Shown here piece by piece: positions 22,508 through 46,367 of a stretch of DNA of 55,532 nucleotides (position 1 is its first letter; every line of letters starts with the position of its first letter). The translations under genes were made by a program, and so were the position numbers. This stretch comes from Mesotaenium endlicherianum (taxonomy: Eukaryota): the NCBI GenBank assembly GCA_009602735.1, contig WELA01003463.1, positions 34,720 through 90,251 of the forward strand, given 5' to 3'. The notes beneath the pieces are model-generated. The model was given only the letters and a program-made list of their open reading frames with translations. It was not told where the DNA came from and did no database searches.

Positions 22508-22613
22508 ATACAGTTGAATTCTCCGGGTCCCCTTCCAGGTTGAACACCGGCAGCCTTCACAGGCCTCAATCCTCAACTGACTTGGGAATTCTTGTTCACA
22601 TGAACCAATCAAC

Positions 22614-22627: not shown

Positions 22628-22772
22628 AGGACAGAAGTGTCTTACTTCCACACAGGCTTTTGCCCAAGTTGAGGGTTTACAGAATGAACAAGTTTTGTGG
22701 TTTGCAAAACTCACATCTAAGCAGCATAACAGGCAATGCCAATTTCAGAGAAAATCGCCCTTCAAGGCTTTC

Positions 22773-24032: not shown

Positions 24033-27000
24033 TCAATTTTTCCTCTTTCTTGTTCTTGCAGGCTGCCTCCAAGGGGTCTTCTGCTGCTTCTTGATGGTGG
24101 CAGGCTGCCTCCCTGAAGTTATCGGGCTCCTAGTAGAGAGACTTGGGGCTGGTCCAAGATGGGGGTTGGCGGCATGGAAGCGCTTCAACTTTCTCTGAAC
24201 TTTGTCAAGGTAGTGCGCCGCCACCCAACTATTCTCCGAATCTGGATATCCTTTCCACTTGATCAAGTATTGCTGCTGTCCCCTGAAATTTCTCATAGCC
24301 ACTATGTCTTCCACTTTGTACTCCAAATAATCATCCACTATTGTTGGGGCTGGTGGGGTTGTCACACGTCCTGGGAACTTGTTGTCGGGTTGCACATATG
24401 GCTTGAAGAGGGAAGCGTGGAATACGGGGTCGATGTGCATAGTCTTAGCTTGAAAGTTTTAGCTTGAAAGCAACGGGGTTGACTTGCTGGATAATCTTGA
24501 AGGGTCCCAAATACTTAGGAGAGAACTTGCTGTCGGCAGGCATGTTGTTCAGGGAAATATTCTTAGATGATAGTAACACGTTGTCACCCACTCTGTACGT
24601 AATTTCTCTTCTGGATCTGTTCGCCACTCTTGCTTGAGCATCTTGCGCGTGTTGTAGAGCTTTCTTCGCTGCTGTAAGGGCTGCTTCTAATGTCTCTTTA
24701 AAATTTGTGGCTGCAGGTACTTCATCATGGCCAGCCGTGAAGTTCAGCGGCGTGGTTGGATGGAAGCCATAGTTGAGGAAGAATGGGGACTCTTGGGTAG
24801 AGGCCTGCGTCGTGTTGTTGTAGGCAAACTCCTGGGGGGTCAAGTACATGTCCCAATCTTGCTCCAGAGTAGACACGTAGGCCTTTAGAGAGGTCTTTAG
24901 AGTACGATTCATACGCTCGGTTTGCCCATCTGATTGCGGGTGGTAGGCAGTGGACATATCCAGCGATGTACCCAAGTTCTTGAAGAGATTTGTCTAGAAA
25001 TGTCTTGTGAATCTTGGATCTCTATTCGACACAATTCTTGATGGTAGTCCATGGAGTCGGAAGATGTTGTCAAAGATGAGTCTTGCAAGTTGTGGTGCTG
25101 TAGCCTTAGTCGTCGTGGGAATAAAATGAACCATCTTGGTAAGTCTGTCCACCACCGTGAGTATTGCATTATGGCCTCGAGGTGTCACGGGCAGGTCCAC
25201 GATAAGGTCCATTGAGATGTCCGTCCATTGTCTTTCGGAAATTGGTCATGGTTGGAGGAGTCCTCCCGCCTTTTGCGATGATGGCTTGATTCTTTGGCAT
25301 GTGTCACAGCTCCTGCAGTACTCCTTGACTTGCTTAGACATGCCTGGCCAACAATAAGTTCGGGCTAGAACGCCCGTGGTCTTTAGGATTCCAAAGTGTC
25401 CTCCAAGAGGGTTGTCGTGTGCTTCTCGTAGAAGCAAGAGCCGGAGGTCTAAGTCATTAGGAACACATCTCTGGCCCGTNNNNNNNNNNNNNNNNNNNNN
25501 NNNNNNNNNNNNNNNNNNNNNNNNNNNNNNNNNNNNNNNNNNNNNNNNNNNNNNNNNNNNNNNNNNNNNNNNNNNNNNNNNNNNNNNNNNNNNNNNNNNN
25601 NNNNNNNNNNNNNNNNNNNNNNNNNNNNNNNNNNNNNNNNNNNNNNNNNNNNNNNNNNNNNNNNNNNNNNNNNNNNNNNNNNNNNNNNNNNNNNNNNNNN
25701 NNNNNNNNNNNNNNNNNNNNNNNNNNNNNNNNNNNNNNNNNNNNNNNNNNNNNNNNNNNNNNNNNNNNNNNNNNNNNNNNNNNNNNNNNNNNNNNNNNNN
25801 NNNNNNNNNNNNNNNNNNNNNNNNNNNNNNNNNNNNNNNNNNNNNNNNNNNNNNNNNNNNNNNNNNNNNNNNNNNNNNNNNNNNNNNNNNNNNNNNNNNN
25901 NNNNNNNNNNNNNNNNNNNNNNNNNNNNNNNNNNNNNNNNNNNNNNNNNNNNNNNNNNNNNNNNNNNTCAAGGGTCTTGCTGTAGATAAGGATGTCATCG
26001 ATGAATACCACCACAAATCTGTCCAACATGGGCTGAAATATGGTGTTCATCATAGTCATGAAAGTTGCTGGCGCGTTGGTGAGTCCAAATGGTAGGACCA
26101 TGAACTCAAAATGTCCATATCTTGTCCTGAATGCCGTCTTCTCTATGTCCGGTTCTGCGATGCGAATCTGGTGGTATCCGCTCCGTAAGTCAATCTTTGT
26201 GAAGTACTTGGTTCCAACCAGCCGGTCCATGAGCTCATCCATGCGCGGCAGCGGGTATCGATTCTTGATGGTGATCTTGTTGAGGGCGCGATAGTCCACA
26301 CACATCCTCAAGGTACCATCTTTCTTCTTGACAAATAGCACCGGGGCTCCAAATGGCGACTTGCTAGGTCGAATGAAGCCATGCTCCAGTAGCTCCTTGA
26401 TTTGCTTCTTGACTTCGTCTAGCTCCGTGTATGACATTTTGAACGTAGGCCGAGAGATGGGCTTGCTTCCGGGCTCCAACTCTATCTTGTGGTCTACGAA
26501 TCTTTTGGGGGGTAGGCCCTTGGGCAATTCCGGGGAGAACACTTCTTTGTAGTCCTCAAAGACTTCTTGTATCTCCTTGGGAACGGGGCTGCCTTCTTGA
26601 CTCTCGATGTCTTTCTTGATGTCTTTTGGCGTGATCAAGGCCAAAAGAAGCTTGTGTCCCTTCCTCACAAGTCTCTTGAGTTGGAGGGCGGACAATAGTA
26701 TCTTGTGTGCCGGCTTCTTGATGTCTTGGGTCTGGATATTCTGGATTGCGCGCAAAATACAGATTCTTGAAGTGAGTTCATTCTTGATCTTGATAGTACC
26801 GTCTTTCCAATCAACTTGGGGGTTGTGCTTGGTCAACCAAGGCGTCCCTAGGATGACGTCGTACTTGCCCAATTGCATGGGGGAGAATACTACTCTATCC
26901 TTGAAGGACTTGATAGAGAGTGCCAAGGAGTACGTCTTCTTGGAAGGGGTAGTATAGGAGAATCCATCGGGCATCATAATCTCCTCGTCGTGGTCAAGAG

Positions 27001-27090
27001 TTCGCATAGTAATACCGTGCTTGGTGGCAAAATCTGCAGCAATGAAGTTGCCTTGAGCTCCGCTATCCACCAAGATGTGGACCTTCTAAG
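24033..27090 (-). pseudogene. Chromovirus C pol (protease, RT, integrase, chromodomain), disrupted; RNase H hidden by gap 25480-25967
   Basis: [67 protein letters not shown] (catalytic Asp apparently changed to Asn), QSDGQTER, YLGPFKI; chromodomain EYKVEDIV..YLIKWKGYPDSENSWV. In-frame stops at 24994 and 25246. Confidence 0.9.
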
Positions 27091-27214
27091 TTCTCTCCTC
27101 CAAGGTTACCTCTCAAACTCATTGGGGCTGGGACGTCGTCTTCAACGGGGGTCTCCACCTCACTTGTCTTGATGCCTTCTCGTGAAGTGGGTCTTGGGGT
27201 GGTAGGCTCCAGGC

Positions 27215-28493
27215 CTACCGGCGCTGTCCATTTTTTGACAACTTTTTGGGGCATGAGAGTGCACGATGGCCCTTTTCCTTGCAATAAAAGCATAGTCCAG
27301 CCGTCATGAGAGCTTCTTTTTCAGCCAGGGAGAGTCTTGCTTTCACTCCTTGCTGGTTTCCTGCATCATAAGTGTCATTGGAGGGTCTTCCACTCTTCCG
27401 GGCAGCCGCGGGGTCCCTTTTAAGAACTCCAATTTCCATGGGTGTGGGTCCAGATTCGGATGTGGAAGGGGTTGCATACACCCGCGTCGCCGGTACCCGT
27501 GAAGATGAAGGCACGGAGTGCTTGAAATCCAAGGTATCCACCTTGGGCCACTTCAATGAACTTTGAGAAGTCCGTCAAGTCGCGTAATTCCACTTCCTTT
27601 GCCACCTTGGGTTTGAGGCCAAAGATGTAGCGGTCAATCTTCTCCTTGAGAGACATGTTGGGGATCTCAAGAGTGAGGGCGTGAAATCTGGATGCATACT
27701 CTTGAACGGACGTCGTTTGCTTGAGATGGTGGAGCTTTCCTTGTTCAATCTTCTCCGCATTGATGGGCATGAATTGCTTTTTGAGGGCCTCACGAAAATC
27801 TGCCCATCTTGCATATGATGGTGGGGGCTCTTGGCCGAGCATGGGGTGCGCCATAGCTTGATATATAGCCGCTTGATAGTTACGCCACCATGATGTTGCT
27901 GCTCCTCTAAGTAAGGTAACGGCAAAGGGAACGTAGTCCTCCTCGGGTACTTCAAGGAATGCGAGGTACGTCTCCACTTGGTAGAGCCATAAATTCAGGT
28001 TGGCACCTTTCCCGGGGTTGAAAGTGTCGGGTTTGCCGGGCTTGATGAGTTTCCTTGCTCTCGTTGGCTCTTGTGGAGGCGCTTGAGCCGGGGCTGGATT
28101 TTGAGCATTGCTCGCAATAGGGGCAACCATGGCAGCCATAGCTTCTCTTGACGCTTGCACGGTTGCTTCATAGGTGGCCAAGCCCACTTGGTTGTGGACG
28201 GTCATTAGGAAGGCTGCCCACTCATTTGCGGGAACTCCTTGTGGTGGGGTCAACTTTGCTATAGCGGCTGCCACGGGATTTGACGGTGCTCCTCCTTGTG
28301 GTGCTTCTTGTTGTTGCAGATTTCCTTGAGTAGGCTCTCCCATCGGCGCTGGAGGAGGGTGTGCTCCTCCTTGTGGTGCTTCTTGTTGTTGCAGATTTTC
28401 TTGAGTGGGCTCTCCCATCGGCGCTGGAGGAGGGTGTCTTGGAGAGGAAGGGCTTCCTTCGAAAGCTTGCTGTTGGTCTTGAGGATCGGCCAT
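27215..28493 (-). pseudogene. Chromovirus C gag (one frameshift near 27556), with CCHC knuckle
   Basis: KPGKPDTF..WLYQVETY..LLRGAATSWW..LKQTTSVQEYASRF..YIFGLKP; CFYCKEKGHRALSC. A 75-bp tandem duplication (HPPPAPMGEPTQxNLQQQEAPQGGA x2) lies near the N-terminus. Confidence 0.88.
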
Positions 28494-28517
28494 CTTCTTG
28501 TGCTACCAAAGTGCCTA

Positions 28518-28529
28518 GATTTGATACCA
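28518..28529 (-). promoter_or_regulatory. tRNA-Met(i)-type primer-binding site of chromovirus C
   Basis: TGGTATCAAATC one base after the 5' LTR; the first 8 nt match the canonical TGGTATCAGAGC. Confidence 0.75.
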
Positions 28530-28530
28530 T

Positions 28531-29067
28531 TGTAGTGAAACAGATAGATAAAGTACTTAGTAAAACAGAATACTCTATTTATTCAAGACAAGGATCTTTG
28601 AATACAAGTGGTAGCTTCTTGAAAGAGAGATGGCTTCTTGATAGTTAATATATTTCTGGAATTTGGCAAGTACAAGAGTGATTCTGGAATGTCTTTCTAT
28701 GTTCTAGCTCTTGTTTATATACTTGTTACATAAGTAATTTCTAGGAAGGTGTATGTTGATGTGTTGGCACCCAACACATCCCAAAACTTGCCACCTCTTT
28801 CTAGAATAATGTACACATGTCCTTTTGACCTAAAAATGGCACATCTGACTTTTGCCACATGGAGTTCTTCTAGGTCTTTCCTCTAACTTCGAAAATGCCT
28901 NGTCTAGGTCTTTCCATTAACTTCGAAAATGCCTTGGAAGGTTCAAAGGACATGAACCAAGTCACTAGAGTACCTATTCACACTTGAATCCACACAATAC
29001 TACTCCGAATGTATTTGAAAACATTAAAATATATGCAAACTAATATATTATAACTCAAATCACTACA
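28531..29067 (-). repeat. 5' LTR of chromovirus C
   Basis: Matches 22773-23267 apart from substitutions, a short indel near the end and a duplication around the single N at 28901. Confidence 0.95.
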
Positions 29068-31184
29068 CTTTCGCTTAACTTCCACAAGTCACAGCTTACA
29101 AAACTCTGAAACTGCACATCTATGCTGGCCTGGTCGGAGCTCTTCACTCAACACCGCGCCTTAACAGCTCTTCACTGCTCTGCTGGGCTCACTCAGTTCT
29201 TCACTGACAGCTTTACTTGTTAAGATTACTCTTGTTATCAGCAATTCGACAATTGAGACTTTTGAGAACTTAGAAACTAACACAGTACTCACCATTTTAA
29301 GTGTCCCTCGCACGTTTGTGGCATTTGACCCAAATCTGTGCTAATCTCGTAACATATTCTATTCTGCAGCTCTCTACTTTCTACCAGCGAGATCCTCTCT
29401 CGGGAACTCTTGAGGTCTAACCTATGATACCCTTAGGAAGAAATCTTCCAACGTCGCTAGAAGCGTGGCGTCTCGGTTCTTCTATGGCCTTGGGAACTCC
29501 TTCTTCTTCGTGCTCCCTCCGCTTCTTCAACTTCCTTTGACAACAATGCGAGCAAGAATGAGGCAGCTACAGGCAGGACTCGTGCCTTTCACAGGCACCA
29601 CACATTATCCTCTCTTGAGAATGCCAGTGCTTAGTCACAGTGCTTAGCTTGCATGCCATCCTTACCTAGCAGCTCTCACACAGCTTAGGAGTTGTCATTC
29701 CGCATGCATGCATGCCTTGGGATTGTCGCGCGTGACTGGTTAGCCCTTCAGCTGACAATCATGCCTATGTGGCCGACTGACAGCGTTTAGAATGAACGCT
29801 CAAGCCGTGACTAGTCACCTGAGGGTCTTGGCCGAGGTGGCACACAACGCTTTTGCAACATCCCTGCTGTACTTGGCTTAGATAGCCAATTGATAAGTAC
29901 CTTTCCGGGCACTAGCTGGTTCCACTCCTAGCCTTTCGGCTGACTACTCCGTCCAAATCCCCATCCATCCCTGGGTGTGGGTTTGACGTGTCGTGACCAC
30001 TTTGACAGTGATAACGACTTTGACATGACCGCTGACTGAGATCACTCGGTCCTTTGGTCGGTTAGTCAACGCTGACTTCCCGTACCTGGGCGGCCGTGGC
30101 TTGCGCTGTACGTGCAGTACCGCCAAACGGGTAGCAGTCGCGATAGCGGTTGCACTTCGTGGACCAAACCTGATTTTTGGAAATAGGAGTACATCACTCT
30201 GAGGCTGTGCAAGTGGTGAAGCGGCCTAAATTGCTCAAACAATTTGCAAAACAAAAGTTTGGTCCCGCCAACGGTTATAAAAGTCGTCGACGGGCTTTGT
30301 CAATCCAATATGTATGTTAAAAGTTAACCACGTTTGAGAACGCGCATCCAACAGCTTTCATGAAATTTGTTTGTGATGTATTTTAGTGAAGGTTAGAATT
30401 AAAAGGGTGCAATTTCTTCAACAATTTGAGTGACCAATTTATCCCCCCCACAATCTGCCCCATGCAATAAATTAACAGTATTGACATCGAATAAACTAAT
30501 GATGTATGGGATAACCAAAAGTTTTGAATCTAAATTTTTTGAATTGCTGGTTGCACGTTCGAAGCAATTGCTAGAAAGAGCAATAAGAACCATAAGAGCA
30601 ATGAGAACCACATAAGATTACTTGGCAACATTCATTGATAATAACGAAGTAAATGCTTGGATATCCAAACGCAATTTCGTAGGGCTGGTGACCCATACGT
30701 ATGTATTGTTGAGAATTTTGATATTAGATGATGCAACAGTGCACCAACAATATGATTAATGAGGAAAATTGCTACTTTGTATGTCCTGTTGCATTTTGAC
30801 ATCACTGTTATGAGGTTGTAAAGTTTTAACCTTTTCTAGAATGGCAATTGTCAAGCTTCTCCCCATGAAGATGGAAACTTCTGTCATAAACTTTTAACAA
30901 GTAAGGTGACGATACCTAGACAAGCATCTCTCTTGAGGTGTTAGATGCGCAAAAACTTGAAAATTAGGTTTGCCTAACCTCAAAATGCGTACAAATTGGT
31001 ACCTGAGAAGAGAAGGCAGGGGTTCAGCAAGAGAGATGGCAGGGCATGGGGGGGAAACTCTCTTCTAGAATCCGGGTGAAATAGCGCCCAAAATTCAAAG
31101 TTTTTAATTAGCGCCCTGAAATCAAAACAACAGAATTAGTACAGTGAATTAGTGACCTTTAATCAGACAAATATGTACTAATAG

Positions 31185-31487
31185 TGTCGTGCCTAACAGT
31201 GTCGGTCCCTTGGCACGTGCGTAGCCTTCCAGCACGCGTGCCTTCGGCCTGGTTGATGTGTCGGTGGCCCTCCTCACGTGTGGCAGACATGGTTGATTGA
31301 CCTTTGCACGTGTGTCGATGACAAGCCTTACCAGGGTTAACCCATCCCTGGGTTCCTGAACTTGCACCATGCAGCCTTGACCAACACTCAGGGTGACGTT
31401 CTCTGTCACCCGGCTCTCACCGTCTGCTTATCCTAAGACTTTAGCAGAAAATTTAAAAATACTTGCCTTGCCTTAATTCCTCTTACA
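31185..31487 (-). repeat. Element B repeat X, terminal copy (303 bp)
   Basis: Near-identical to 36013-36315. Confidence 0.93.
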
Positions 31488-31823
31488 AGGACGGAAGTCT
31501 CTTACTTCCACATAGGCTTTATGCCTTAAGGTTCTTGGGTTCACAGGTGAGCAAATTGTAGTTTGCAGAAATCACACTCTAAGCAGCTTGACATGCAACG
31601 TCAGATTCAAAGAAAATCGCCCTTCAGGCTTTTCGCTTAACTTCCACAAGTCAGCTTACAAAACTCTGAAACTTCGTCTATGCCTGGGTCAAGCTCTTCA
31701 CTGCCAGGCTGGGCTCACTCAGTTCTTCACTGAGAGCTTTATCTGTCAATACTACTCTCTCTCTTCGAGATGCGAATGCGACTTCTGAGAAGTTGGAAAT
31801 CAACACACAACTCACCATTTTAA

Positions 31824-34800
31824 CACTAGATTTACTGCCTATAGGACCAAAACCGACACCACAATAGCCTATCTTTGAATGCTCATACTAAAATGAGTGC
31901 TTATGTGGTACATAAGAGCCATATATATACTGAATCTACTTTGAGTAAGCAATCTGGCAATGTACTTTTTCCAATTTTTCCGGGATATTTTAGTGTACGT
32001 TTTTGTACTTCAAGGAAAACACACGTGTGAGGTCCCATAAGTACATTTCTTCTCAGCACAATATCCGGAAAGGTACAACTTATTTCTAGATCCTGATTTT
32101 TTCCAGCATTTATCCTGATGTAAGGAGGACAGTGCACTTTACAGATATGCAATTTATTTAGTATCCTAGCTGCTACACCAGCCCAATGTTTGGGACCCAA
32201 ATTGACACCAAGTTTTTTGGTCATTGGTCCCATAAGGAATCTAGGAAATGCATCATGCAGATTTATTGTTTGGTGCATAACTTTTACAATTCTTGATGGA
32301 AATTATTGAAACAAGTTCAGGCATGCTTAGAATACCTTACACAAGCACTATGAAACATGAAAACACCAAAAATATGTAAAGCAAAAATTATGAGTCTTGT
32401 CATGTATGGCTCCATGGCCGACGCGTCGGAAATCTGGTATATGGCAGATGGTGTGAGGTAAAAAAATATTAGTCTTAGAGTTATGCACCTTTCATCAATG
32501 CTACTGTTTAGGAGCACCAGTGGGCAACCTCTTCCTACCACAATCTAGATGCTCTATGTTTCTGGTAGTGTGAAAAATTTCAAAGCAAGGAGTGGGATGT
32601 AAGGCAACATTACAAGGTATACACATGAATTGGCACCTCTTCTTCCGTGCTGCAGCTCCTAAGTCAAAGTACTTAGCACTACACACCACGTAGCTTGTCC
32701 TTTCTCCTTTCTTCACCTTGTCAAGAAAGTGCCTCCCAGTCCACCTTTGCTCTTCAGCAGCTCCTGCTGCACTTGACCTGGTCTGCCTGTCGCGAGGATG
32801 TACCCACTCCGACATCTCCCTCACTAGTTGCAACATGAACAAGTATCTGTCAGCACCAGGGTGGGCCAGCTCATACAATATGTATGCATTAGCAATGGCA
32901 CCATCAAATAAGCCCCAATACAGGCGGTGCCACCACTTCCTAGCTACTTGCTCAGTCTCCACAGAGTAGTTGTCTCTCAAGCATAACTTGTCAAATTGAT
33001 CGACCGCGTCTTTGTACATGTTATAGTGCTTCACAATCTCTGGTGCAGGTATAGTCTTAGTCTCTCCTCCCTTCTGTCTCCTCTCAACCTCAACTACAGT
33101 AAGACCTTGACAGTTAGACAAAAGATACGCAGGCTTCTTGTCTTGCCAAACTACAGCTACGTGTTCAGGCCATTCTGACACGAGCGCTGTGAATGACCCT
33201 TGCTCCGCCTCTTTCTCTTCTGCAGGTATGTCTAAGACCAGCTGCTTAGTAGGATAGTGCATTCTATTTACAACTGTGCCTGTTGCTCCATGGCCAAGCT
33301 CTGACAGTGCTCTCACAAGTACAGGACTTGTGAAGCCTCTATCTAATACAAAGCTGTAAGTCTGACCCTCTGGCAAAGTGCTGACCATCTCCATAATAAC
33401 AGTGGTATTTTTGCCAGGTCTCTTGACCTTGTCAAATACTACAAAGTCCCAGCAGTAATATGTGACACTATCAACCAGTGTGAACAACTCAATGCCAAAT
33501 TTGTGAGGCTTCTTAGGACAATACACCCGGACTGGATACTGTCTATTTCCAGTTGGAATAAGTCTCTCATCAATTGTCATGTGCACACCTGGATTATAGT
33601 GCTCCTTGAATGCTCTTTAGAGTAGATCTATGAAGGGTTGACACTACCAGAGCTTATACTCTCCAGACTTAGGAGGAAATACATCTCTGCCTGCATTAGA
33701 AATAATATGCATGTTTGCTTTTATCTGGACCCACCTATCTCTAGACATGTATTTGCCATAGGCAGGAAACTTTACAGGACCAAAATTGTCATTCTTCCAG
33801 TACATGGTGTACCTAGGCAAGGAATTCAATGCCATAGCAATACACAAGCCATGCCACATGATGAGCTCACTAGTGGTCAGCTGGTTCCATTGCTTTGCAC
33901 CTTCACTATGTGCATATGCATTGGTAACAGAAACCATGGAGTCATACCAGTCTACACCAATGAGAAGGCTCAAAACAGCAAAAGGGCTGAAGTTGTGAAA
34001 GTGCCTTGTGCTCACTCTGGCCAGGCCTGTGGCCAGAGTGCTGACAGGCTTCACCAGCCAAGGTGGAACTTCACCTCTAGCAGCAGGCCTCCAGGAGTAC
34101 TCCTCTCTGTTGGCAGGCTCCTCAACTTCTTCTTCTTCAGCAGCAGCAGGCACCATTGGCTCTCCTTCAGACTCCAGCTCCGTGTCTGAGCTGTACTCCT
34201 CTTCATCTGAGTGCCTGTTCTTCTTCTTGCTGTAGCCCCTCTTTGCCCTCCTCTTAGCAGTCTCCCTTGCCACTACCACCCTGTTCCTTCTCTCTTCCCT
34301 GTTAGCAGGCACAGACATGTCTGGTCCTGTCTGTTTTGATGGTCTCCCTCTCTTTCGTGTTGACTCTATCGGTTCTAAGCCTGTTTTCGACTCTTCCTCT
34401 GTGTCTATTGTGTCTGCTACTGGTGTGGGGGTGTCTTTCGGTGGTGTGGGAGTGTCTTCTGGTGGTGTGGGAGTGTCTTCAGGTTTGGGGGGGGTGTTTA
34501 CAATGCTAGGAGTAACTTCAATCACATGAGAAGCAGGAAGCTGTGAAAGTGGGTCCGAAGAGGCCTCAACTCTAACAACTCCCTCATATGGGCAAAACCA
34601 ACGAAATTCGGGGATAGAAGGCATGTATTGTAGTATTTGGCTGCGTCCCCATGTTTTGTACTCTCCATCGTAGCCAAAATAGATCTTAAACTTGGTTTCT
34701 TTGGTCTTATGCACCTCTTCCTCTAATATTCCGACCAAAAAAAACTCTTTGTAATGCTTTCCAAACTCTTGTGCTGCCCAAGTTTCACCCCAGATCTTAC

Positions 34801-35165
34801 TAGGTGTCAGTATCTTAGTGCCTACAGCTACCGGGGGGCCTGTAGACGAAGAAGCAATGTCAGCCATGGCTTCTATAGCATGCAAAGCAAAAGAAATGAC
34901 AGACAGGAAGAGGCCTGTTCGAATGTCAAAATCGAAACAGAAGGTGACCTCTTCGTGGCCGGCAAACTTACATAACTTCGTCATATATTGGCCGTTATGG
35001 CTAAAACTAATTTGCTGGAGGGGTTTGAGTTATGACACATCCAATGAGCCTATTTTTAGACAATTCTGATTAAAAAAAAAGTAGGCTAAGGGGGTGTAGA
35101 ATTTTGCCTAGTTATGGGACATAAATTGGTTCAGAACCAAAATAGGACCCACAGTATAGCTAGTG
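31824..35165 (-). mobile_element. piggyBac-superfamily DNA transposon (3342 bp)
   Basis: TTAA TSD at 31820-31823 and 35166-35169 (a single TTAA in the uninterrupted Y copy near 45523). Imperfect 14-bp TIRs CACTAGATTTACTG / CACTAGCTATACTG. Transposase ORF inside. Confidence 0.93.
32501..34867 (-). pseudogene. piggyBac transposase, one reading frame with two premature stops (33644-33646, 33617-33619)
   Basis: MSRDRWVQIK, TIDERLIP (D1), PKKPHKFGI, LDRGFTS (D2), YNMYKDAVDQFD (D3), KWWHRLYW, C-terminal Cys/His domain CQFMCIPCNVALHPTPCFEIFH. The start Met is a best guess. Confidence 0.9.
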
Positions 35166-36012
35166 TTAAGGCTGCTTCACACACACACTTGTGGCGTTTG
35201 GCTGAGTCCGTGCTAATCTCCTAGCAGATTCTATTCTCCAGTTCTCCTTCTTCAACCGTGAAATTCCCTCTTGGGAACTCCTACAATCCTAACTTATCTA
35301 CGATACACAGAAGAATCTTCAGCGTCGTCAGAAGCGTGGGGCTTTGGCCCTCCAGTGGCCTTGGGAACTCCTTCTTCTCTCTCCTTCTGCTTCTTGGCAA
35401 AGGTGCATGAGAGTGAATGACATGTCTCAGGCAAGATTCGTGCCTTTGGCAGGCACCACACAGCGTCATCTTTCGAGAATGCCGTGCTTAGTCACACAAC
35501 TTAGTTGCATGTCGCCTCTGCCTAGCCATGCTCAACTCAAACTCGTAGTCACTCAGCATGCATGCACACCTTGTGACTGTCGCGCGTGGCTGCTTAGCTT
35601 CTCAACTGGCAGTCACGCCTAATTGGCTCATGGCTAAGAATTCCTGAGCGGCGTGCAAGCAAATGCCACTTGCTCAAGTTTTCCCAACGGGGCGGCCGTA
35701 ACCTATCTTGGCATTGCAGCCATGACCTGGCTTAATCTGCCAGTCACACAGTACCTGACCTGGTACTTGCTGGGCGGCTCATTGCTGATCCCCAGCTCCT
35801 AGCCTCGCGGCTGTCTTGTCAAAACCTCCCCCATCCCTGGGTGTGGGGCACACTGACATTGACCCCTTGCCAGTGGTCTTGACGCCGCCATAACCGCTGA
35901 CTGCGATGTAATCAGTCAAGTGGTCGGTGAGTCAATGTTGACTTTCAGCACTAGGTGGCCGTAGCTTGCGCTGCGCGTGCGACACCGTCAAACGGATAAT
36001 AGTCGCGACAGC

Positions 36013-36315
36013 TGTCGTGCCTAACAGTGTTGATCCCTTGGCACGTGCGTAGCCTTCCAGCACGCGTGCCTTCGGCCTGGTTGATGTGTCTGTGGCCCTC
36101 CTCACGTGTGGCATACATGGTTGATCGACCTTTGCACGTATGTCGGTGACAAGCCTTACCAGGGTTAACCCATCCCTGGGTTCCTGAACTTGCACCATGC
36201 AGCCTTGACCATCACTCAAGGTGACGTTCTCTGTCACCCGGCTCTCACCATCTGCTTATCCTAAGACTTTAGCAAAAAATTTAAAAATACTTGCCTTGCC
36301 TTAATTCCTCTTACA
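36013..36315 (-). repeat. Element B repeat X, internal copy directly after the PPT
   Basis: Matches 31185-31487; separated from Y by GC (36011-36012). Confidence 0.93.
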
Positions 36316-36327
36316 CCCCTCCCTTTC
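36316..36327 (-). promoter_or_regulatory. Polypurine tract of element B
   Basis: GAAAGGGAGGGG on the - strand, followed by TGTAAG. Confidence 0.85.
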
Positions 36328-38089
36328 AGCTGAGGCGTCCCTGCCTTTCCTGTTGAAAGCTATTATTTTCCAGCCCTGCGGCTAGGAGTTTTAGGAAGGC
36401 ATCAGGACATTCCCATCGTCTTGCCATAGTTTCTTCCTCGCCAATGCAGAAAGTGTGCCAACGGGCACCACATTTATCGCAAGTTACCATTGCTTCCTGA
36501 TTGTCCAGCACTTTGCAGCTGGCACAAGGCGTGGCCGGCACCAATTCCTCGGGCACAACCTTAACTGTGGGATCAATATTCGGCAAATGGCATAGCGAGC
36601 AATTCTGCACGTGGTCTCTTATGGTTTTACCATCAGAACCCTCCAGTTCTAACACACCATTGTCAAACGCATGTTTCACGCGCAAGATCACTGCACCTGA
36701 ACTGGTGTCGATGGTGGTCTTGGTCTGGCGCTTGCGGTAGACAAAGTCTCCTTCTTGAATCTGCGTCATCTGCAGGCGGTAGCTCCCGTCTCGCGTCCTG
36801 GCGTAACGTTGCGTATCTCTTTTCTGTGCAATTTTCAGATTGTATAGTGCAGCCAGTATCATGCGCTCAAATAACGCCTTACGGCGCACCATCACTTTTA
36901 ACAGTTCATCAGGGCTGTCCAGGTCTTTCACCTGTTCAATCTCCTGCTTGATGCTGCTGGGCATTACTGGACTTCTGCCAAACAGTATCTGATATGGCGA
37001 GTAATTTGCCAAGGCAGCCTGCTTGCTAAATCTGTAACCCGTAACCAGCCATGGCAGGGCTAGATCCCAGTCACGCTTGTCATGCTCAAGGCAAAACTTG
37101 CGCAAAGCAGACTTAATGGTTTGCACCATCCTTTCTGCCAGACCATCTGCTTGCGGATGATCTCTAGACGTAGTGCGATGATCGATGAAGCATCTGTCCA
37201 AGAGTTTCTGAAAAGACCCTTGGAACTCAGACCCTTGGTCTGTCAGCACTTCTGCTGGAGCTCCATGACGCACAATCACACCATTGAGGAACGCTTCCGC
37301 GGTCCCTAGACTCTCCTTAGCAGTCAGAGGGACAACCTCTATCCACTTAGAGAAATGCTCAATCATTACCATGATATACTTGTTACCTCGCTTAGACAGC
37401 GGTAGCTCACCTGCAAGATCGCAGCTCCAACGGTAGCCTAGGCCCATGATTGGCAAAGGTTGCAAGTGTGGATGTTGCTGTGTAAAACCAGCCTTGACGC
37501 AATCACAGCTTTGGCAGGCCTTGATCACATCTTCACACTGCTGCTTCATGCCCCTCCACCAGTAAGACAGCTCCAAAAGACTATATGTCTTCTCGACACC
37601 ATAGTGTCCAGTGTTCTCGTGCATTTCTTGCACAAGGGCTCGTCTCCTGATGGGTTCTGGCACTAACTTCTCCTGACCAGTTTCTTCAATTTTGAAGAGG
37701 TTGTTACATTTCCAGCAAAACTTTTTAGCTCGATGGCTTACCTGGTCCTTCTCCTTCACTAATAGTCCTTCCAAGTGAGTTCCCGTCTTCAGCCAGTGCA
37801 TAGTAGCTTGATCTTTCCAGATCTCTGGACTGAACAGGGGTAGAGGCTCAGCTTCACCTGATGCTACTATTCTAGCCATTTCGGCTAGGCACGCCACCAA
37901 CTCTGCTGGGCTGCTTGGGTCTTTGTCCTCTCGAGCTCCTGTTCTGTCGTCTGAAGATGGGTCTGGGTTCCTGCTGAGTCCATCGGCGTCGTTGTTGAGC
38001 ACTCCAGCTCTGTGCACCACCGTCATTTGGTACTCTTGCAGCTTAAGAGCCCAGCGAGCCAACTTACCAGTGAGGTCTCCATTCTTCAT
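36326..38089 (-). CDS. Element B: end of RNase H, DDE integrase and C-terminal PHD finger
   Basis: LARWALKLQEY..ADGLSR; HENTGHYG..CQSC zinc-binding motif; WSCDLAG, LTDQGSEF, DGLAERM; CASC..CDKC..HTFC..WECPD (last Cys lost by a frameshift relative to A). Confidence 0.9.
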   Translation of the reverse strand: MKNGDLTGKLARWALKLQEYQMTVVHRAGVLNNDADGLSRNPDPSSDDRTGAREDKDPSSPAELVACLAEMARIVASGEAEPLPLFSPEIWKDQATMHWLKTGTHLEGLLVKEKDQVSHRAKKFCWKCNNLFKIEETGQEKLVPEPIRRRALVQEMHENTGHYGVEKTYSLLELSYWWRGMKQQCEDVIKACQSCDCVKAGFTQQHPHLQPLPIMGLGYRWSCDLAGELPLSKRGNKYIMVMIEHFSKWIEVVPLTAKESLGTAEAFLNGVIVRHGAPAEVLTDQGSEFQGSFQKLLDRCFIDHRTTSRDHPQADGLAERMVQTIKSALRKFCLEHDKRDWDLALPWLVTGYRFSKQAALANYSPYQILFGRSPVMPSSIKQEIEQVKDLDSPDELLKVMVRRKALFERMILAALYNLKIAQKRDTQRYARTRDGSYRLQMTQIQEGDFVYRKRQTKTTIDTSSGAVILRVKHAFDNGVLELEGSDGKTIRDHVQNCSLCHLPNIDPTVKVVPEELVPATPCASCKVLDNQEAMVTCDKCGARWHTFCIGEEETMARRWECPDAFLKLLAAGLENNSFQQERQGRLS

Positions 38090-38137
38090 CAGCCATAGTA
38101 ATGGTGAGTAATCCGTGATCAGTGTGAAGGGTCTTCC

Positions 38138-39157
38138 CTACAGATACTCTCTGAAGTGTGTGACCGCCCAAACCACTGCCAGCAGCTCTCCTTCATAGGA
38201 CGAGTAGTTGCTCTCCGCTCGATTGTTAGAGCGTGAGGCATAGGCAATGACATACTCCTCTCTAGGGCTTGTGGCCTGAGTGAGTACTGCGCCAATTCCC
38301 ACACGACTCCAGTCAGTGTGCAGATTGAACGGTTTGGAGTAGTCAGGCGTTCGCAAGACTGGGGCTGTTACCAGCCGCTCCTTAAGCTCGTTCATGGCTT
38401 TCTCCTGAGCTTCTGTCCACACAAAAGGTACATCCTTTTTCAGGAGTTCCGTCAAGGGTTTAGCAATTCTGCTATAACCCTTCACAAACTTACGATAGTA
38501 TCCGCTTAGCTCTAACAGAGCTTTCAGCTTAGACACATTCGCAGGTGCAGGTATCTTGTAAATAGCCTCAGTCTTCACAGCCTGAGGGGACATAGCATTG
38601 TTCCCAATCTCATGTCCTAGGTAAGGCACGTGTGCCTCAAAGGCACACGTCCATTGCCAAAGTTCCTTTTGAGCCCAGAAAGCAGTCTTACCTCGATCTT
38701 TTGTTTTCACAGGGATCTGGTTGAAGCCTTGGCGCAGATCGATAATGCTGAACACCTTTCCGGTGGTGGCAATTGCAAAGATCCTTTCCGGCGTAGGCAT
38801 CACATAGCTATCTGGCTCCGTGTAGAGATTCAGTCGCCTGTAATCTCCACACATACGAGTGGCAGTGTAATTGCCGGCCTTGTCCTTTTTAGCGGCTACT
38901 ACTGTAGGAGCCCCATGTACTGAGGTAGATTTTTCAATCATGCGGAGCTTATGCAGCTCTTCACAAGTTTTCTCCACACAGTCCCATTCTGTCTGACTGA
39001 GCTTATGCGGCCCTAGTCTGACTGGGTTATCAGTAGTTAGTGTGATCTCACACACACTGGCAGTGGTTCTACCAATCTCCTCCTGAGTGAAGGCAAATAC
39101 CTTGCGGTGTTTCTTCAGCAACCTTTCTACTTGTGCTCTCTGCTGGGCTGAGACCAT
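38138..39157 (-). pseudogene. Element B RT/RNase H with the YxDD core deleted
   Basis: RMCGDYRRLN, IDLRQGFNQI, KTAFW, then jumps to FEAHVPYLGH; about 65 aa present in A are missing. RNase H LHTDWS..IAYASR..ELLAVVW. Confidence 0.9.
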
Positions 39158-39220
39158 TTTCCCAATGGCAAAAGTCTCAGTTTCAGGTTGCTTCTCCCCA
39201 ACAAAGGCATCCAGTAGTTG

Positions 39221-42200
39221 CTACTCCTTAGGTGCAGGTGGGGGCTTCCCGCCCTCATCCTGGCCCTCAGGCTTTTCTGCCTGATTTTGGCTCTCAGGCT
39301 TTTCTGCCTGATTCTTAGGAGGTGGGGTAGCAGGCTTTGCAGCTTGCTCCTCCGTTGCCATAAGTTCGGCAGCCTGTTTCTTAGGCTTTTTACCTTTCCC
39401 AATGACGCGTCGCCTCTCCTGCGGTGAGGGGTATGTCAGGCGCCTCCGGATGGGCTGCCTCAAAAACATTTCCTCGTCGACTGCAGTCCAACTGGTCCCG
39501 GTTCCTCCTTCTTCACGTGGCCGAGGTTGGTTTGCCATTGGAAAACCTGCGGGATCTGTCCTAGGGCTGATCGCCCAGCCCCATTCTTGCTCAATAATAG
39601 CCATGCGGGCGACGGTCGTGCCATACTCCTCCCTTGCGGGTGGTGTGACCATCCATGCCTGCGCCAATGTTTGCGGCCTTTGAGGTGCCGCTAGTTGTGC
39701 GAGAAAGGCATCATCTGCTGCGGTCAAGCGGCTGATGGTGTTTCTCAGATCCATCAGTTCCCATCCTGGGATTGCAGGTATCATGGGAGCAGGCTCCTCC
39801 GACCTCTGTATCCTAAGATGTGATAGTTGCAACAAGGGCGTGTTCATGCCTGGCGGCACACTAATGCCCAATGCCATTGCCCTGCGAACCAAATCGTCCT
39901 CTCCCTCTCTCTGCAGAATATCCCGCAGAGGCGGAGGAGGTGGGGCTGTGGTTCCTCGCGGAATGCCCTCTCTCTCTCTGAGCCTTCCCCTTATGTTTGA
40001 AATATCGCTCTAGCATCCTCCTAAAAGATGCGTTACCCTCACGGGCCACCTTCCTTGGTCTGCTTGCGCGACTTTTGGGCTTTCCTTGTGCTGTCTCCAC
40101 TTTAGCAGTGCAGGCAGTCACCTCCTGCCATTGCGGTGGTTGTGCGGTTGACTTGGGTTCTGCTACTGGAAGACTGGCAAAAGGAGAACTGGATGTTGGC
40201 GACCTTAATTCTTCATAAAGGTCTGCCGGGCTTGGCCCCATCAGGTGGTCAGCCACCCAGTCGTCTGTCCTCAGCTCCTGTAAGTCAAGCAGATCCAACT
40301 CTGGCGTGGGAAAACGTGGAATCTCTCCCCTAATGTCCCCTTCATTGTTGAGTGATGGAGACTCCAACTCCGAGAGGCCTTCCATCTCTGCATCCTCTTC
40401 CTCCTCCGGCTTCTCTATTCCAGGAGGCGGTAATTCTTCATCCCCTCCTGTGTTGAGCCTCGCCATGTTGATGATAGCTGACTGTAGAACGAGAGCTGCT
40501 TTCGCCACTTTTTCTTCCTTGAGTCGAGGGGCGTCTGCTTCCAGCAACTGCGCCATGATTTGCCTGGTGATCGACTCAGCTGTGCTGCCAACTATGTCTT
40601 GTGGTTGCCCTTTGGCCTCTGGCCCTGGGCTCATCAGAGCAAGTGTGGCGGGCAATCTCTTGGCCGTCGCCTTCTTGTGTTCTTCAAAAATCACCTCCAG
40701 GCAAATGGTCTTTCCAGACCCTCCAGAATTTCCTGAATTCTGACTGCATTCTTCGGCCCATTCGCCAATATTGCACTGGCGTTCTTCATATTTTGATGTT
40801 ACTGCGTCTGGGGATGGGCTCCCAAAGACTTGGTCTGGAGCCATGTTTCGTAACTCAGAACTGGTACATTCTTCCCATTCCGGCATCCTCCCCAATACTT
40901 GGCTGGAGCGTTCTGCAGATGCTGGGACCTCCTGTGATTTGCTGACTGCAGCGCTCACCAAAGGGTTTGCTGCACCAGTTGCCTGGTCTTCCATGGTTAC
41001 GTCTCCTCGCAGCCTCCGCAGCTCTCTTTCCAGAGGGTCGTGTAGAGTCGCCATCCGATTGTCAATTCGCGTCAATAAGTCTTGACACCTGGTCAGCTCC
41101 ACCACTCTGGTTTCTCTGAGTGTTTCATCTTGGTCAGCCTCAGCTGCGTCTCTTTCAACAGCATATTCTTTTTGTCGCTGATACGCTTCCCTGATAGCTC
41201 TTTGATCAGAGGTTGGCACCACATGGACTCCAATCGTTACCGGCCTCGGCCTGGGCATAGGCTTGTCAGAGAACGTCATCTGTTGCCAAGTCATAATCGT
41301 CTCTACCAACCATGTCATGGAGTGATGCCCAATCATATTGTCGAATATCTTCCCAGCGTTGTCCTGTCCCACCATTGCAACAATTTCTTGTGCAATGGAG
41401 TTGGGTACCCCCAGGCACCTTCCCTTCTCTTCAGCTGTCGGCTCTCTCCACTGAGCTTCTCTGTTGTGCACATCTTTGACCATTCCTGGTCCTCCATTCA
41501 CGAAAGCGCGTGATCCTGGGTATGCTGTGAAGGTGGGCAGCACCACCCTCGGCCGGCCTGGCTCGTTGACGACGTACTGTGGGTAGGAATCCCTCCTGAT
41601 CACTGGCTTGGTTTCCACCATCAGTGCTTCTCCCACAGATACTGCCGTTGGCGTGCGCCGCGTAATCTCCTCCATCTTCCTCAGGATTTCAATGGACATG
41701 CCGTTGGTCCAGAATAGTCTGGCCCGGTGTGAGAGTCCTCCGTGCCTGGCGTCGTTGATCAATACATGATGACCCAGGGTGGAGTCAAAGACGAGCCATT
41801 GATCTCCTGGCTTCATCTGGTTGTAATCCATCCCTAGATGTACATTCTCAATCACAAACACTGGTGGGTAGAGATGCTGGCGTTCCCGCAGCATACTGAT
41901 GATCTTCACCATCCTTCCCCAGTGTTGTGCTCGCGGGTCATTGAATCCCCTCCTGTTCCCAACTTGCGAGAAAGGTTGACAAGGGAATCCCGCAAAAATC
42001 CAGTCAATCGTGTAACCATACAGGTCCTCAAACTTCACATCGAGAATGTTTTCTCCAGCAAGACGCACCACACTAGTGGGCACCAATGCCTTGAAATGGT
42101 ACATTTGCCGCATCTGACTCATGACCTCCTCAAATGCCTTAAAAACATTCTCATCATTGTCCACATACAGCACTTTGGATACCTGGATACCTCGCTGAAT

Positions 42201-45035
42201 CGGTGCGATGGTTCCAGTACCAAGTCCGGCGAACAATTCCAGCACTACTACTCCTCTCCTGCAAAAAGGATCTTCCATCCTCACAATGCCTTGCGGCAAT
42301 GGGTCTACTCCAGGCATCAAATTGGCAGCAGTCTTAACTGGATAAGGAACTGGCAGCAGCTCTTGCGGGCTACGGTCCCTGTTACTCACAGCTTCTAGTT
42401 GCTCCATAATCCAAGGTTGCCAAACCAAGGGAGTCGGCATGTTGATGCTGGTGTAGATCTTCTCTTCGCGTTGCATGATGAGGTCATAATGGTCTGGATA
42501 CTGGTCATTCACATAGCAGTCTAGCAGTCCGTAGTTTGCTTCTCCCGAGCAAACCATTTTTACAGGAATTTCTCCTGTCGGCTGCCGATCTGTCGACTGG
42601 TAAGTCACCCTCTGCTTCCGCAGGTCGATGACCATACCCAGGGGAATCAGAGCTTCTGTCCCCAATAGAACATCATAGTTTTCTGCCTCTGTCACCGTAC
42701 ACTCTATGAACAGTGACGCTTCCTCAGGTTTCCCCAAGTTTACTGTGATTTCCACAGGCTTGCGGGTGATTCCACAAGACTTTGAAATCTGCCCAGATGC
42801 AGTCCTCAACTGGAAAGGACTTTCTTTCAGGTCCCTTGCCGTCAATCCCAGAGCTTTCACAGCTCGCTTTCCCAAGATTACTGGCTGTGCGCCAGTGTCC
42901 AATAGGATATTGGGAGCGGCCCAGTTGTTAAACGTCAAAACTCTATCCTTGTTCTGCACTCTCACAGTGCTGAAATTAGTAGGCAGCGAAGCGCTGTTCG
43001 CGCCTTCCTCAGCTAGGTCCAGCTGCTGTCCGGCTTCCTCAATCGTGAAAGGATATGTAAGACGCAGATCAGCGAGTGAAAGACAAGGAATGTGCTGAAT
43101 CCGGTGTTCCACCAGAGCCTTCAGCTTTTCCAGCGAAAAACTAAATGTCTTGCGTGGCCCAGGCTTGGCTTGTCGTAGCTGCGCAATCTCGTTCTCATCG
43201 AGAGTGATCCGAAAGGTCTGAGGAAGCTTCCCAGCATTCCTTGGAACCAGACGATCATGATCTGCGCGCTCCGCAGCCGTTGCAGCCACGGCCTTCTCAG
43301 GCGTCAGCTTCTCGCCTTTGCAGACGGTCTTTTCGGCCACATCTGCATCATAATAGACATTAGGCACATTTAGTCTTGCAAATTGAGCTTTCAACTCTGC
43401 AATTTCTGCACTCATAGCATCATACTTCTGATTACCCTTCCGGTTACCAGAGTTATCTCTCTCCCGTTTCTTACCCTCATCCGCCTCTTTCGTGGCAGCA
43501 TTAGCCCATGGTGGTTTCAGATTTGGGTTCTTGGACCAACACTCATCTTCTGAGTGTCCCTTTTTACTGCAATGTGCGCATACCTGCGCCTTGCTAGCAG
43601 ACAATTGCTTAGCATCCGAGTACGGACAATCTCTCTTCTGATGTCCTGATTTCCCGCAATTCCAACAGCCCTCTGCTGTCTCAGCAGTGTTGGCGTGCTT
43701 AGCAAACCTATTGAAAGACCCGCTCTTTTTCTTAAATTGAAAATTAGAGCTATTGGCCTTGGGCTGAAAGGATTCCTCCCTTCTCTCAGGAGCCATAAGC
43801 GTCCTAGAAGCCTCCTTGTACCAGACTTTACCTTCCTCAACATTCCGTGCTATTTCAGCAGCCTCGTCGATGTTCCAGTCGATTCCGCGTTTTGCAGATA
43901 GGTGCGGCCTGACCTCCCAATCTGTATCTTTACCCGGACACAATAAGAATTTGTCAGCCACAATCCTAGGCTCATAGATTCCTGCCTTCTTGGCAAGGTC
44001 TACCAATCTGGATTTGACCTCCATCACTGTCTCGTTCTTCTGACGGACAAAATGCACATAGCGGTGCACTTTAAGACTGCGATCCTCTGGGAATGTTGCT
44101 TCAAGCAACTTGAAGAAACGACGCAGACAGTGCTCAGAGTCTAACTGGTCATCCCCAGCCTCCATATCCCTACGGCAACTAGCCAACGCTTGCGCATGGC
44201 TTGCTTCCGTGGTGACACTATCACCATGCTGCCCTGTAAAAGGTGCAGCTCTGCGTGTTACTCGTTCCTGAGCATTAGCAATCTTTTCAGACAATTCTGC
44301 ACACACTTTTCGCAATTCTGCGACAGATCCAGCATCATCATCTCGAGTAGCCGCTCGCTGCTGACCCTCGGTGAGTTGCTTCATGGCATCTGTTAATTCT
44401 TGTGTTAGTGCAGCTAAGTTTACGCTCTCAACAGGTGCAGCAGGTATCGCTCTTCCTGATGACAAAGCGGACAGGCGGGCTTTCGCAGCCTCTTTCTGGA
44501 TTTTCAAATCCCTCGCCTTCTTTTGCTCGTCAAACGCCCATTCCTGGGTAAGGTTCTCATTCTTCCGAAATTGGCGATACAGGAACAAGGCATCCTTGTC
44601 CAAGTACTGAACCAAGCTTATAAAAGCGACTGACTGAGTGTAAGAAGAATCCTTTCGGATTTTCTCAAAGAAGTCAGCCTAATAGATCTCATCAAACTCT
44701 TCGAAAGTTAGACTATTTCCACTAGTTCGTCCACTAAAACACTTTGTAGACAGCTTGAACTTATCCTTATCATCACCAGTCATTTCGAGTGGTGACCAAG
44801 ACTCACTATCTTTATCCCACACGTCGTGCTCTCTGCCCGAATTGGGTACAAAAGCTCGCGTGTTATACGGATTCTCACCGTTCGTGGCAGTATGGCGAGA
44901 CTCGTCTCTCGACGGTTGCTCACTCCACAGGTTATCCGTGTGCTCTGATGTCTCACTTTCTCGTGGACTCTGGCTTGAATCAGAACCTTTTGCAGGCTCC
45001 ACAGGGTAGTAGAGTCTTCCATTCCTCAACTGCAT
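39221..45035 (-). pseudogene. Element B polyprotein N-terminal part: Gag (2 CCHC), aspartic protease, C5-DNMT, uncharacterised region; includes the 1584-aa open frame 39861-44615
   Basis: MQLRNGR start (45035); CWNCGKSGHQKRDC and CAHCSKKGHSEDEC; LLDTGA..DVLLG; DNMT motifs. Breaks near 44679 and 39880. Confidence 0.9.
41285..42260 (-). other. C5 cytosine DNA methyltransferase domain in frame within the element B polyprotein
   Basis: VLELFAGLGTG (I), LYVD (II), IFAGFPCQPFS (IV, catalytic PC), FVIENV (VI), HRARLFW (VIII), REPTAEEKGRCLG (IX-like), IFDNMI (X; GN in A). Confidence 0.92.
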
Positions 45036-45144
45036 GTACAGTTGAATTTCTCCGGGTCCCCTTCCAGGTTGAGCACCGGCAGCCCTCACAGGCCTCAATC
45101 CCCAATTTGCTTGGAAATTTCTATTCACTTGAACCACGGAACTG

Positions 45145-45158
45145 AAGTTCTCAGAAGT
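45145..45158 (-). promoter_or_regulatory. Putative self-priming primer-binding site of element B
   Basis: Exact inverted repeat of 45484-45497 inside the adjacent Y repeat; identical to the A site. Confidence 0.72.
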
Positions 45159-46367
45159 AGGACAAAAGTCTCTTACTTCCACATAGGCTTTATGCCTTAA
45201 GGTTCTTGGGTTCACAGATGAGCAAATTGTAGTTTGCAGAAATCACACGCTAAGCAGCTTGACATGCAACGTCAGATTCAGAGAAAATTGCCCTTCAGGC
45301 TTTTCGCTTAACTCCCACAAGTCAGCTTACAAAACTCTGAAACTTCGTCTATGCTGGCCTGGGTCAAGCTCTTCACTTAACACCGCGTCTTAACAGCTCT
45401 TCACTGCCAGGCTGGGCTCACTCAGTTCTTCACTGAGAGCTTTATCTGTCAATACTACTCTCTCTTTTCGAGATGCGAATGCGACTTCTGAGAACTTGGA
45501 AATCAACACACAACTCACCATTTTAAGGCTGCTTCACACACACACTTGTGGCGTTCGGCTGACTCCGTGCTAATCTCCTAGCAGATTCTATTCTGCAGTT
45601 CTCCTTCTTCAACCGTGAGATTCCCTCTTGGGAACTCCTACAATGCTAACTTATCTATGATACACAGAAGAATCTTTAGCGTCCTCAGAAGCGTGGGGCT
45701 TTGGCCCTCCAATGGCCTTGGGAACTCCTTCTTCTCTTTCCTTCTGCTTCTTGGCAAAGGTGCGTGAGAGTGAATGACATGTCTCAGGCAAGATTCGTGC
45801 CTTTCGCAGGCACCACACAGCGTCATCTTTCGAGAATGCCGTGCTTAGTCACACAACTTAGCTGCATGTCGCCTCTGCCTAGCCATGCTCAACTCAAACT
45901 CGTAGTCACTCAGCATGCATGCACACCTTGTGACTGTCGCGCGTGGCTGCTTAGCTTCTCAGCTGGCAGTCACGCCTAATTAGCTCATGGCTAAGAATTC
46001 CTGAGCGGCGTGCAAGCAAATGCCACTTGCTCAAGTTTTCCCAATCGGGCGGCCATAACCTTTCTTGGCGTTGCAGCCATGACCTGGCTTAATCTGCCAG
46101 TCACACCGTACCTGACCTGGTACTTGCTGGGCGGCTCATTGCTGATCCTCAGCTCCTAGCCTCGCGGCTGTCTTGTCAAAACCTCCCCCATACCTGGGTG
46201 TGGGGCACACTGACGTTGACCCCTTGCCAGTGGTCTTGACGCCGCCATAACCGCTGACTGCGATGTAATCAGTCAAGTGGTCGGTGAGTCAATGTTGGCT
46301 TTCAGCACTAGGTGGCCGTAGCTTGCGCTGCACGTGCGACACCGTCAAACGGATAATAGTCGCGACA
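45159..46367 (-). repeat. Element B repeat Y, 5' copy (1209 bp, uninterrupted)
   Basis: Matches the split copy at 31488-36010; no X copy lies next to it. Confidence 0.93.

Follow-up and report, generated by a model that had tools for sequence, protein, structure and literature searches.

The 12-bp palindrome examined here is probably an element-encoded end-to-end junction: its two halves are the termini of a Ty3/gypsy retrotransposon, and the sequence comparisons below suggest that joined cDNA is opened at this site by the element's own DDE integrase. The window, meaning the whole stretch of 55,532 nucleotides that was analyzed, comes from Mesotaenium endlicherianum (contig WELA01003463.1), and relatives were collected from metagenomes. 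Layout, termini, target duplications, tract and primer positions, spacer constancy, joint variability, and spread through the clade are all read directly from these sequences.

Two Ty3/gypsy copies with permuted repeats

Self-comparison of the window identified two related minus-strand Ty3/gypsy copies, A and B (Table 1), which in the coding orientation share the order A1-coding-B1-site-A2-B2. In element B, the repeat pair 31185-31487/36013-36315 is 96% identical (11 differences between B1 and B2), and the pair 31488-31823 plus 35166-36010/45159-46367 is 97% identical over its 845-bp part; the pairs of element A, in the same layout, are ~94% identical. The A pair and the B pair are equally diverged within a copy (96 to 97% in element B, 94% in element A). 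Element B begins with TGTCG at 31185 and ends with CGACA at 46367, between ATAG duplications, and element A begins with TGTCG at 11836 and ends with CGATA (one transition) at 30145, between GCGG duplications. The A2-B2 joint of element B, GTCCT/TGTAAG at 31488/31487, is blunt, with zero bases added or missing.

Table 1. Features of elements A and B, in positions of the window
Feature	Position	Strand	Description
Element B, whole	31185..46367	-	A1-PBS-gag/pol-PPT-B1-GC-A2-B2
Element B target duplications	31181-31184, 46368-46371		ATAG/ATAG
A1 of element B, 1209 bp	45159..46367	-	TGTCG at host border to GTCCT before primer site
B1 of element B, 303 bp	36013..36315	-	TGTAAG after tract to CGACA at site
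A2 of element B, first part, 845 bp	35166..36010	-	97% identical to A1
A2 of element B, second part	31488..31823	-	Beyond piggyBac insertion; GTCCT end
B2 of element B	31185..31487	-	CGACA end at host border
Element B internal junction CGACA-GC-TGTCG	36006..36017	.	B1 end, 2-nt spacer 36011-36012, A2 start
GCACGTGC box, left end of element B	31213..31220	.	28 nt inside; family-level feature
GCACGTGC box, right end of element B	46330..46337	.	30 nt inside; GTACGTGC-like in element A
Polypurine tract AAAGGGAGGGG	36316..36326	-	Immediately before B1
Primer-binding-site-like 14-mer	45145..45158	-	Immediately after A1; without tRNA-type TGG
14 nt perfectly complementary to primer site	45484..45497	-	Predicted transcript 5' end and self-primer
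Coding region, element B	36326..45242	-	Gag (zinc knuckle)-protease-C5 DNA methyltransferase-TAG-RT-RNase H-integrase-PHD
Open stretch, element B	36329..38137	-	RNase H end, HHCC, DDE core, PHD finger
Element A	11836..30145	-	Layout as element B; GCGG duplications
Element A parts	B2 11836-12056, A2 12057-13274, B1 13278-13497, A1 22628-30145	-	
Element A internal junction CGACA-AGC-TGTCG	13270..13282	.	

A1 of element A is interrupted by a nested gypsy (22773-29067) of canonical form, with TGTAG...CTACA ends, a 5-bp CTTTC duplication, and two full LTRs; as an internal control, it shows what the usual arrangement looks like. A piggyBac-type transposon (31824-35165; DDE_Tnp_1_7, TTAA duplication) lies inside A2 of element B, where its target was a TTAAAAT word ~25 to 30 nt upstream of the predicted transcript start. 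Beside element B, at 47281-48150 (+), is a PMR5N-domain exon of a trichome-birefringence-like host gene; like the named homologues of the elements, it indicates a green-plant lineage.

Both elements retain TG...CA termini with the short duplications (4 to 6 bp) typical of Ty3/gypsy, and polypurine tract and primer site bound a direct repeat whose unit is B-GC-A; two full LTRs ending at tract and primer site are replaced by the A1-coding-B1-A2-B2 arrangement. The tract of element B abuts TGTAAG (36315). Because the tract precedes B and the primer site follows A, the reverse-transcription repeat would be B-GC-A, running from TGTAAG to GTCCT, and the integration ends would therefore lie 303 bp inside U3. 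Inserted copies start and stop at the site, with TGTAAG joined to GTCCT at 31487/31488. The original prediction had placed the site in mid-LTR; it lies instead 303 bp into a repeat unit of ~1.5 kb. The TGTAAG and GTCCT ends are unconserved and imprecisely joined, and in run X1 the A-B joint reads 36315>45159 in 2 contigs and 36316>45159, with an extra tract base, in 1.

The complement of the primer site is also kept in element A, at 12400, again perfect over 14 nt, and spans 7 to 16 nt in relatives, lengths taken without a chance control. No cluster of transcript starts or ends was seen in three RNA runs (39, 124, and 99 reads), and the self-primer duplex does not form in the minimum-energy fold.

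The coding region of element B is interrupted by stops. Pfam domains in the elements comprise zinc knuckle, protease, C5 DNA methyltransferase, RT, RNase H, HHCC, integrase core, and PHD finger, and the Gag-PR-RT-RNase H-DDE integrase order is that of Ty3/gypsy. No tyrosine recombinase was matched by Pfam in 14 window frames or 11 frames of relatives, a scan that left out short or decayed frames. The closest solved integrases are those of Ty3 (Gag-Pol 7q5b, the best match, E value of 7.7e-22) and foamy virus, and named relatives, 44 to 56% identical, come from Klebsormidium, Calypogeia, and Closterium. The catalytic triad is D240, D300, and E335, with a D-to-E interval of 34 residues in place of the canonical D-35-E, a one-residue gap relative to both Ty3 and foamy virus. 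The same D-34-E spacing was found in 91 of 92 pattern-matched proteins (28 of 120 were unmatched by the pattern) and in all 41 matched loci of the 80 metagenome loci described below.

The cytosine methyltransferase domain sits between protease and RT in the window (39861-44678, minus strand) and in one relative (L006:976-5082) and is absent from the scanned frames of L065, L072, and L074. An in-frame TAG separates Gag-protease-methyltransferase from RT in the window (39221-39223, minus strand) and in L006 (5083-5085), and the bases after it, CAA-CTA and CAG-TTA, respectively, fit UAG-CAR-YYA, a read-through signal; the fit is missing at four other stops checked, all elsewhere in position. Two relatives have an extra long frame between integrase and tract (L065:11450-13831, with no Pfam match, and L075, downstream of position 1393).

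A constant site and a ragged joint

Positions 36006-36017 read CGACAGCTGTCG, and CGACA-N(0-6)-TGTCG occurs just twice in the window, there and at 13270-13282 in element A, so that both versions of the predicted palindrome are present in the sequence. As also predicted, its halves are the element termini beside the duplications in both copies, and the flanks are conserved: over the 31 nt that surround the site, A and B show 94% identity, versus 67% for the repeats overall, a level matched by 1.5% of 31-nt windows. Palindromes of 12 bp occupy 60 positions in the window, 24 of them outside one TA run; the palindrome taken alone is within chance expectation, and what goes beyond chance is the coincidence of its halves with the termini and the repetition of its core in other families. 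For GACAGCTGTC, the chance expectation is 0.13 occurrences. The GCACGTGC box proposed to lie about 30 nt inside each end is where it was predicted to be in element B, but it has several copies there and its position is unfixed in most other families; as a clade-wide subterminal box it is unsupported in the metagenome families. GCACGT-like words were seen by eye ~30 to 35 nt before the site in several of the Chlamydomonas sequences compared. In run X1, 32 contigs depart from the reference directly past 36010, with dissimilar flanks. Of 25 length changes, the 12 listed include none in the spacer.

Of the 534 loci confirmed in a metagenome scan, 80 were retained; their integrases are 40 to 51% identical. 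The largest family contributed 52 of the 80 (44 distinct once re-sequenced places were removed, with L017 and L049 counted as separate loci); of these 44, 25 run from tract through B and site into A, 17 pass from B into host DNA, and 2 end early. The original prediction regarded a spacer of random sequence and length as a sign of insertion scars. Instead, all 25 spacers are 2 nt long (AC, 9; GC, 7; GT, 5; AT, 2; TC, 1; AA, 1), and 23 of them are either GC itself or differ from it by C>T or G>A changes, which we infer to be the transitions expected from methylated CAG/CTG. A spacer of 2 nt is thus the rule, and the 3-nt spacer of element A (one of the two in the window) is an exception whose additional A most likely arose afterwards by mutation.

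The A2-B2 joint behaves differently. In 22 copies it falls into five length classes (-2 nt, 9; exact, 6; +1 nt, 3; -1 nt, 2; larger deletion, 2), which were assigned by eye on decayed, assembled contigs, and its variability versus the constant spacer gives a Fisher P value of 3.5e-6. Joint classes do not cluster significantly with relatedness (P = 0.21, at the low power of a star-like family); a close trio, L018, L056, and L058, has one common class.

Duplications of 4 bp flank 9 of the 10 copies in which both outer ends are present, six exact and three with one transition. Two of the nine lack A2-B2 and read A-coding-B. The third copy of this form, L051, has no 4-bp match; by eye, it shows an apparent 8-bp duplication with three transitions (2911-2918/11984-11991). 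One duplication encloses the whole structure in all seven distinct complete metagenome copies and in both window copies. That enclosure bears on the idea that the arrangement is an accident of adjacent insertions or an assembly artifact. Such an origin could draw on the commonness of 12-bp palindromes by themselves, but we give it next to no credence: it is refuted by the single enclosing duplications, by the constancy of the spacer (25 of 25), and by recurrence of the site in at least ten families.

Among the 28 loci outside the largest family, 19 had sufficient downstream DNA, and GACA[GA][CT]TGTC was found within 1.5 kb after the integrase in 6 of these versus 0.07 expected from shuffles; upstream, there was none in 128,929 bases. 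GACA-GC-TGTC recurs in families whose flanks are unrelated, and in L065 and L074 the site is farther off or reads GTCA-GC-TGTC. Across ten families the site lies 56 to 359 nt past a G-run, and the bases following the G-run are unconserved. In a quick integrase tree, used for spread alone, every main branch includes carriers of the site; the rows with the site unseen are mostly short contigs or B-to-host copies. Viral contigs gave 4 weak, unrelated matches. The claim that the site is a permanently encoded end-end junction supplying both termini is supported by this comparative evidence and by the fixed 2-nt spacer.

The same junction can be recognized in published Chlamydomonas families. In the available library (PMC9940879), CA-GC-TG follows the tract in Gypsy-2a, -2b, -3, -5a, -6, -7a, -7b, and -7c, whose records, like the window elements, run from tract through a short B and CA-GC-TG into the repeat; the borders of Gypsy-1 and Gypsy-4 look canonical there. 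Counted by eye, GACAGCTGTC occurs at least 11 times in the part of the Chlamydomonas v6 supplement that we used (PMC9940879), 9 of them ~40 to 60 nt from a G-run. A figure legend (PMC9940879) states that the left LTR of Gypsy-7a_cRei is without the last 8 bp of the right, and by our reading of that source, B in this family is precisely those 8 bp. Like the window element, Gypsy-7a_cRei has a PHD finger (PMC9940879). The families differ in being filed as ordinary LTR elements, in the length of B (8 to ~60 bp), and, for Gypsy-7, in a TGG-type primer site, as far as these records go. By their junction layout, they are candidate relatives of the window elements. The same source reports 86 new insertions of Gypsy-7a_cRei in one laboratory strain (PMC9940879), and because this lab-active family carries the junction, the model is testable.

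Proposed joining and opening of the cDNA

In the proposed cycle, transcription would start at the primer-complementary 14-mer and the transcript would prime itself; reverse transcription would then likely give a linear DNA bounded by B-GC-A repeats. Its raw ends would likely be joined by imprecise end-joining; both the joiner and the order, joining before cutting, are what we infer. At the internal CA-GC-TG beside the joint, the DDE integrase would likely nick after CA on both strands, and the opened molecule would be inserted with a 4-bp duplication. End-joining followed by integrase opening predicts what the family displays, a constant symmetric terminal site together with a ragged joint of cDNA ends. 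At L017:3985 and L049:4840, a raw A2 end is fused to inverted internal element DNA, so that this end exists free; the fusions are possibly failed or self-insertion products. One-repeat circles, opened likewise, would yield A-coding-B copies, and such copies exist among the metagenome relatives, although recombination between B1 and B2 is another possible source of them. One contig (L074:1-9171) closes on itself in assembly and has a single B-GC-A repeat, which may reflect either assembly collapse or a genuine circle with one repeat.

Several observations stand against this scheme. All nine complete two-repeat copies, 7 from metagenomes and 2 from the window, have the arrangement expected from opening beside the joint (P = 0.004), and none of three informative B-to-host copies has the A-B-GC-A-coding-B arrangement. 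Since a circle would hold two identical sites, the 9-to-0 outcome requires an unexplained bias to the joint-side site. With a B as short as 8 bp, the binding site could be completed by the joint; a B hundreds of bases long would call for some end-loading of integrase, which is a speculative assumption. In addition, both window copies carry an identical blunt joint.

An alternative order puts cutting first. Integrase would open the left internal site on linear cDNA, both pieces would be inserted, and host repair would seal the raw A2 and B ends in the chromosome, so that the same site and chemistry operate without a free circle. The product would be identical, imprecise joint included, and the nearness of the left site to a DNA end could account for the 9-to-0 bias. 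Failed sealing could also produce the fusions at L017 and L049. Cutting first would nevertheless demand double-strand break repair at every insertion. An integrase footprint is ~16 to 20 bp, and the piece released from Gypsy-7, with its B of 8 bp, would be smaller and presumably too short to be held alone. We consider this order of events unlikely.

A DIRS/Ngaro-like templated route would place the joint in the template: a transcript through A2 into B2 would inherit it, template switches would produce linear DNA with the final ends, and the integrase would meet ordinary ends. The repeat layout is shared with DIRS/Ngaro elements, and the single blunt joint in both window copies and the one class in the close trio suit inheritance. 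The tract, however, sets the plus-strand start at B1, away from the host-border end; the A and B pairs are equally diverged within a copy; joints hold extra tract-side and primer-side bases; and templating gives no reason for a constant 2-nt palindromic spacer. We regard this route as very unlikely.

Closure of the circle by the integrase itself, as in IS3/IS30, with a processed end attacking the other and the encoded site opened afterwards, has a slimmer chance still. Trimming to CA would leave the commonest joint class of the large family, TTCA/ATAC (9 of 22), but a 2-nt microhomology accounts for that class just as well; exact and +1 joints are no less common, and the window copies (GTCCT) and Gypsy-7 are without CA at that end. 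End-joining of raw cDNA followed by integrase opening is the reading that we favor. The further suggestion that the intact internal copy might be re-cut in the chromosome found no support in this analysis.

Relation to known systems

In the textbook account of LTR elements and retroviruses, linear DNA is inserted by its ends and LTR circles are regarded as by-products; whether 2-LTR circles are ever true retroviral precursors is disputed. The genome structure described here records integration by way of an internal junction, in dozens of copies that belong to at least ten families. On balance, we lean slightly toward a clade represented in both green algae and early land plants in which the ends have moved to a fixed CA-GC-TG, circle integration is obligate, the integrase has D-34-E spacing, and a member is active in laboratory Chlamydomonas. 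If so, the clade would be a standing example from nature of integration from circles, a route long deemed a dead end for LTR elements, and the laboratory alga with its 86 new insertions would make a tractable system for studying it. It would also open to study host end-joining within a retroelement cycle and the opening of covalently closed DNA by integrase at a 10-bp site. The permuted layout explains why LTR-pair finders and dating tools mishandle such elements.

No published mechanism for such a junction was found in the full-text literature, a coverage outside which subscription journals, theses, Repbase notes, and figures fall. In the portions of the sources available, the layout (KnitGypsy-Dnmt3 legend) and the 8-bp oddity of Gypsy-7a_cRei are each in print once. 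New here are the conservation of GACA-GC-TGTC across families, the contrast of constant spacer and ragged joint, the bias toward a single arrangement, the D-34-E spacing of the integrase, and a test system that is active.

The legend to Fig. 4c describes KnitGypsy-Dnmt3 of Klebsormidium nitens as having the DIRS repeat structure A-coding-B-A-B (PMC5890265). Like the window element, it combines gypsy domains with a cytosine methyltransferase in Pol, a feature set that we compared by description; it differs in that the accessible account gives no junction sequence, tract or primer analysis, or mechanism (PMC5890265). The best integrase match is a K. nitens protein (56%; K. nitens integrases, 51 to 56%), which is not tied to KnitGypsy-Dnmt3.

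By its domains, the window element is Ty3/gypsy and neither DIRS/Ngaro nor an IS circle. The tyrosine-recombinase retrotransposons PAT, Ngaro, and VIPER share its A-coding-B-A-B split direct repeats, whereas it has no recombinase and instead carries a DDE integrase, protease, polypurine tract, TG...CA ends, and a 4-bp duplication. Membership in DIRS/Ngaro/PAT was accordingly rejected: the split repeats are present, the tyrosine recombinase is not. Self-priming gypsy elements (Tf1/Sushi, Tcn1) likewise have no tRNA match and a primer site whose complement lies within the repeat; in the sections seen they differ by two full LTRs and a chromodomain, where the window element has a PHD finger and permuted ends (PMC6317226).

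IS3, IS30, IS21, and IS256 circles have abutted CA ends with a short spacer that are opened and inserted, as far as the source was available (PMC3299598). The IS3/IS30 analogy originally drawn would hold for this opening step alone and fails elsewhere, since the junction here is reverse transcribed and the circle-closing joint lies at a different site. In IS circles, the junction is the product of the transposase and its spacer comes from host DNA (PMC3299598), with no RNA step; the junction in the window is element encoded and copied by reverse transcriptase, with a constant GC, and the variable host-derived spacer is replaced by one derived from GC in 23 of 25 copies. A closer precedent, by analogy, is foamy virus, whose integrase in vitro cuts the palindromic 2-LTR junction CA-AT-TG after CA on both strands, leaving 2-nt 5'-AT overhangs (PMC1180852). 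HIV-1 integrase similarly cuts its own 2-LTR junction in vitro after CA on both strands and requires the DDE triad (PMC1905944; PMC4372172). In the portions of those reports available, the viral junction consists of ligated cDNA ends and belongs to a side path; in the window element, it is encoded inside U3, apart from the ligation joint, and is the source of every observed terminus.
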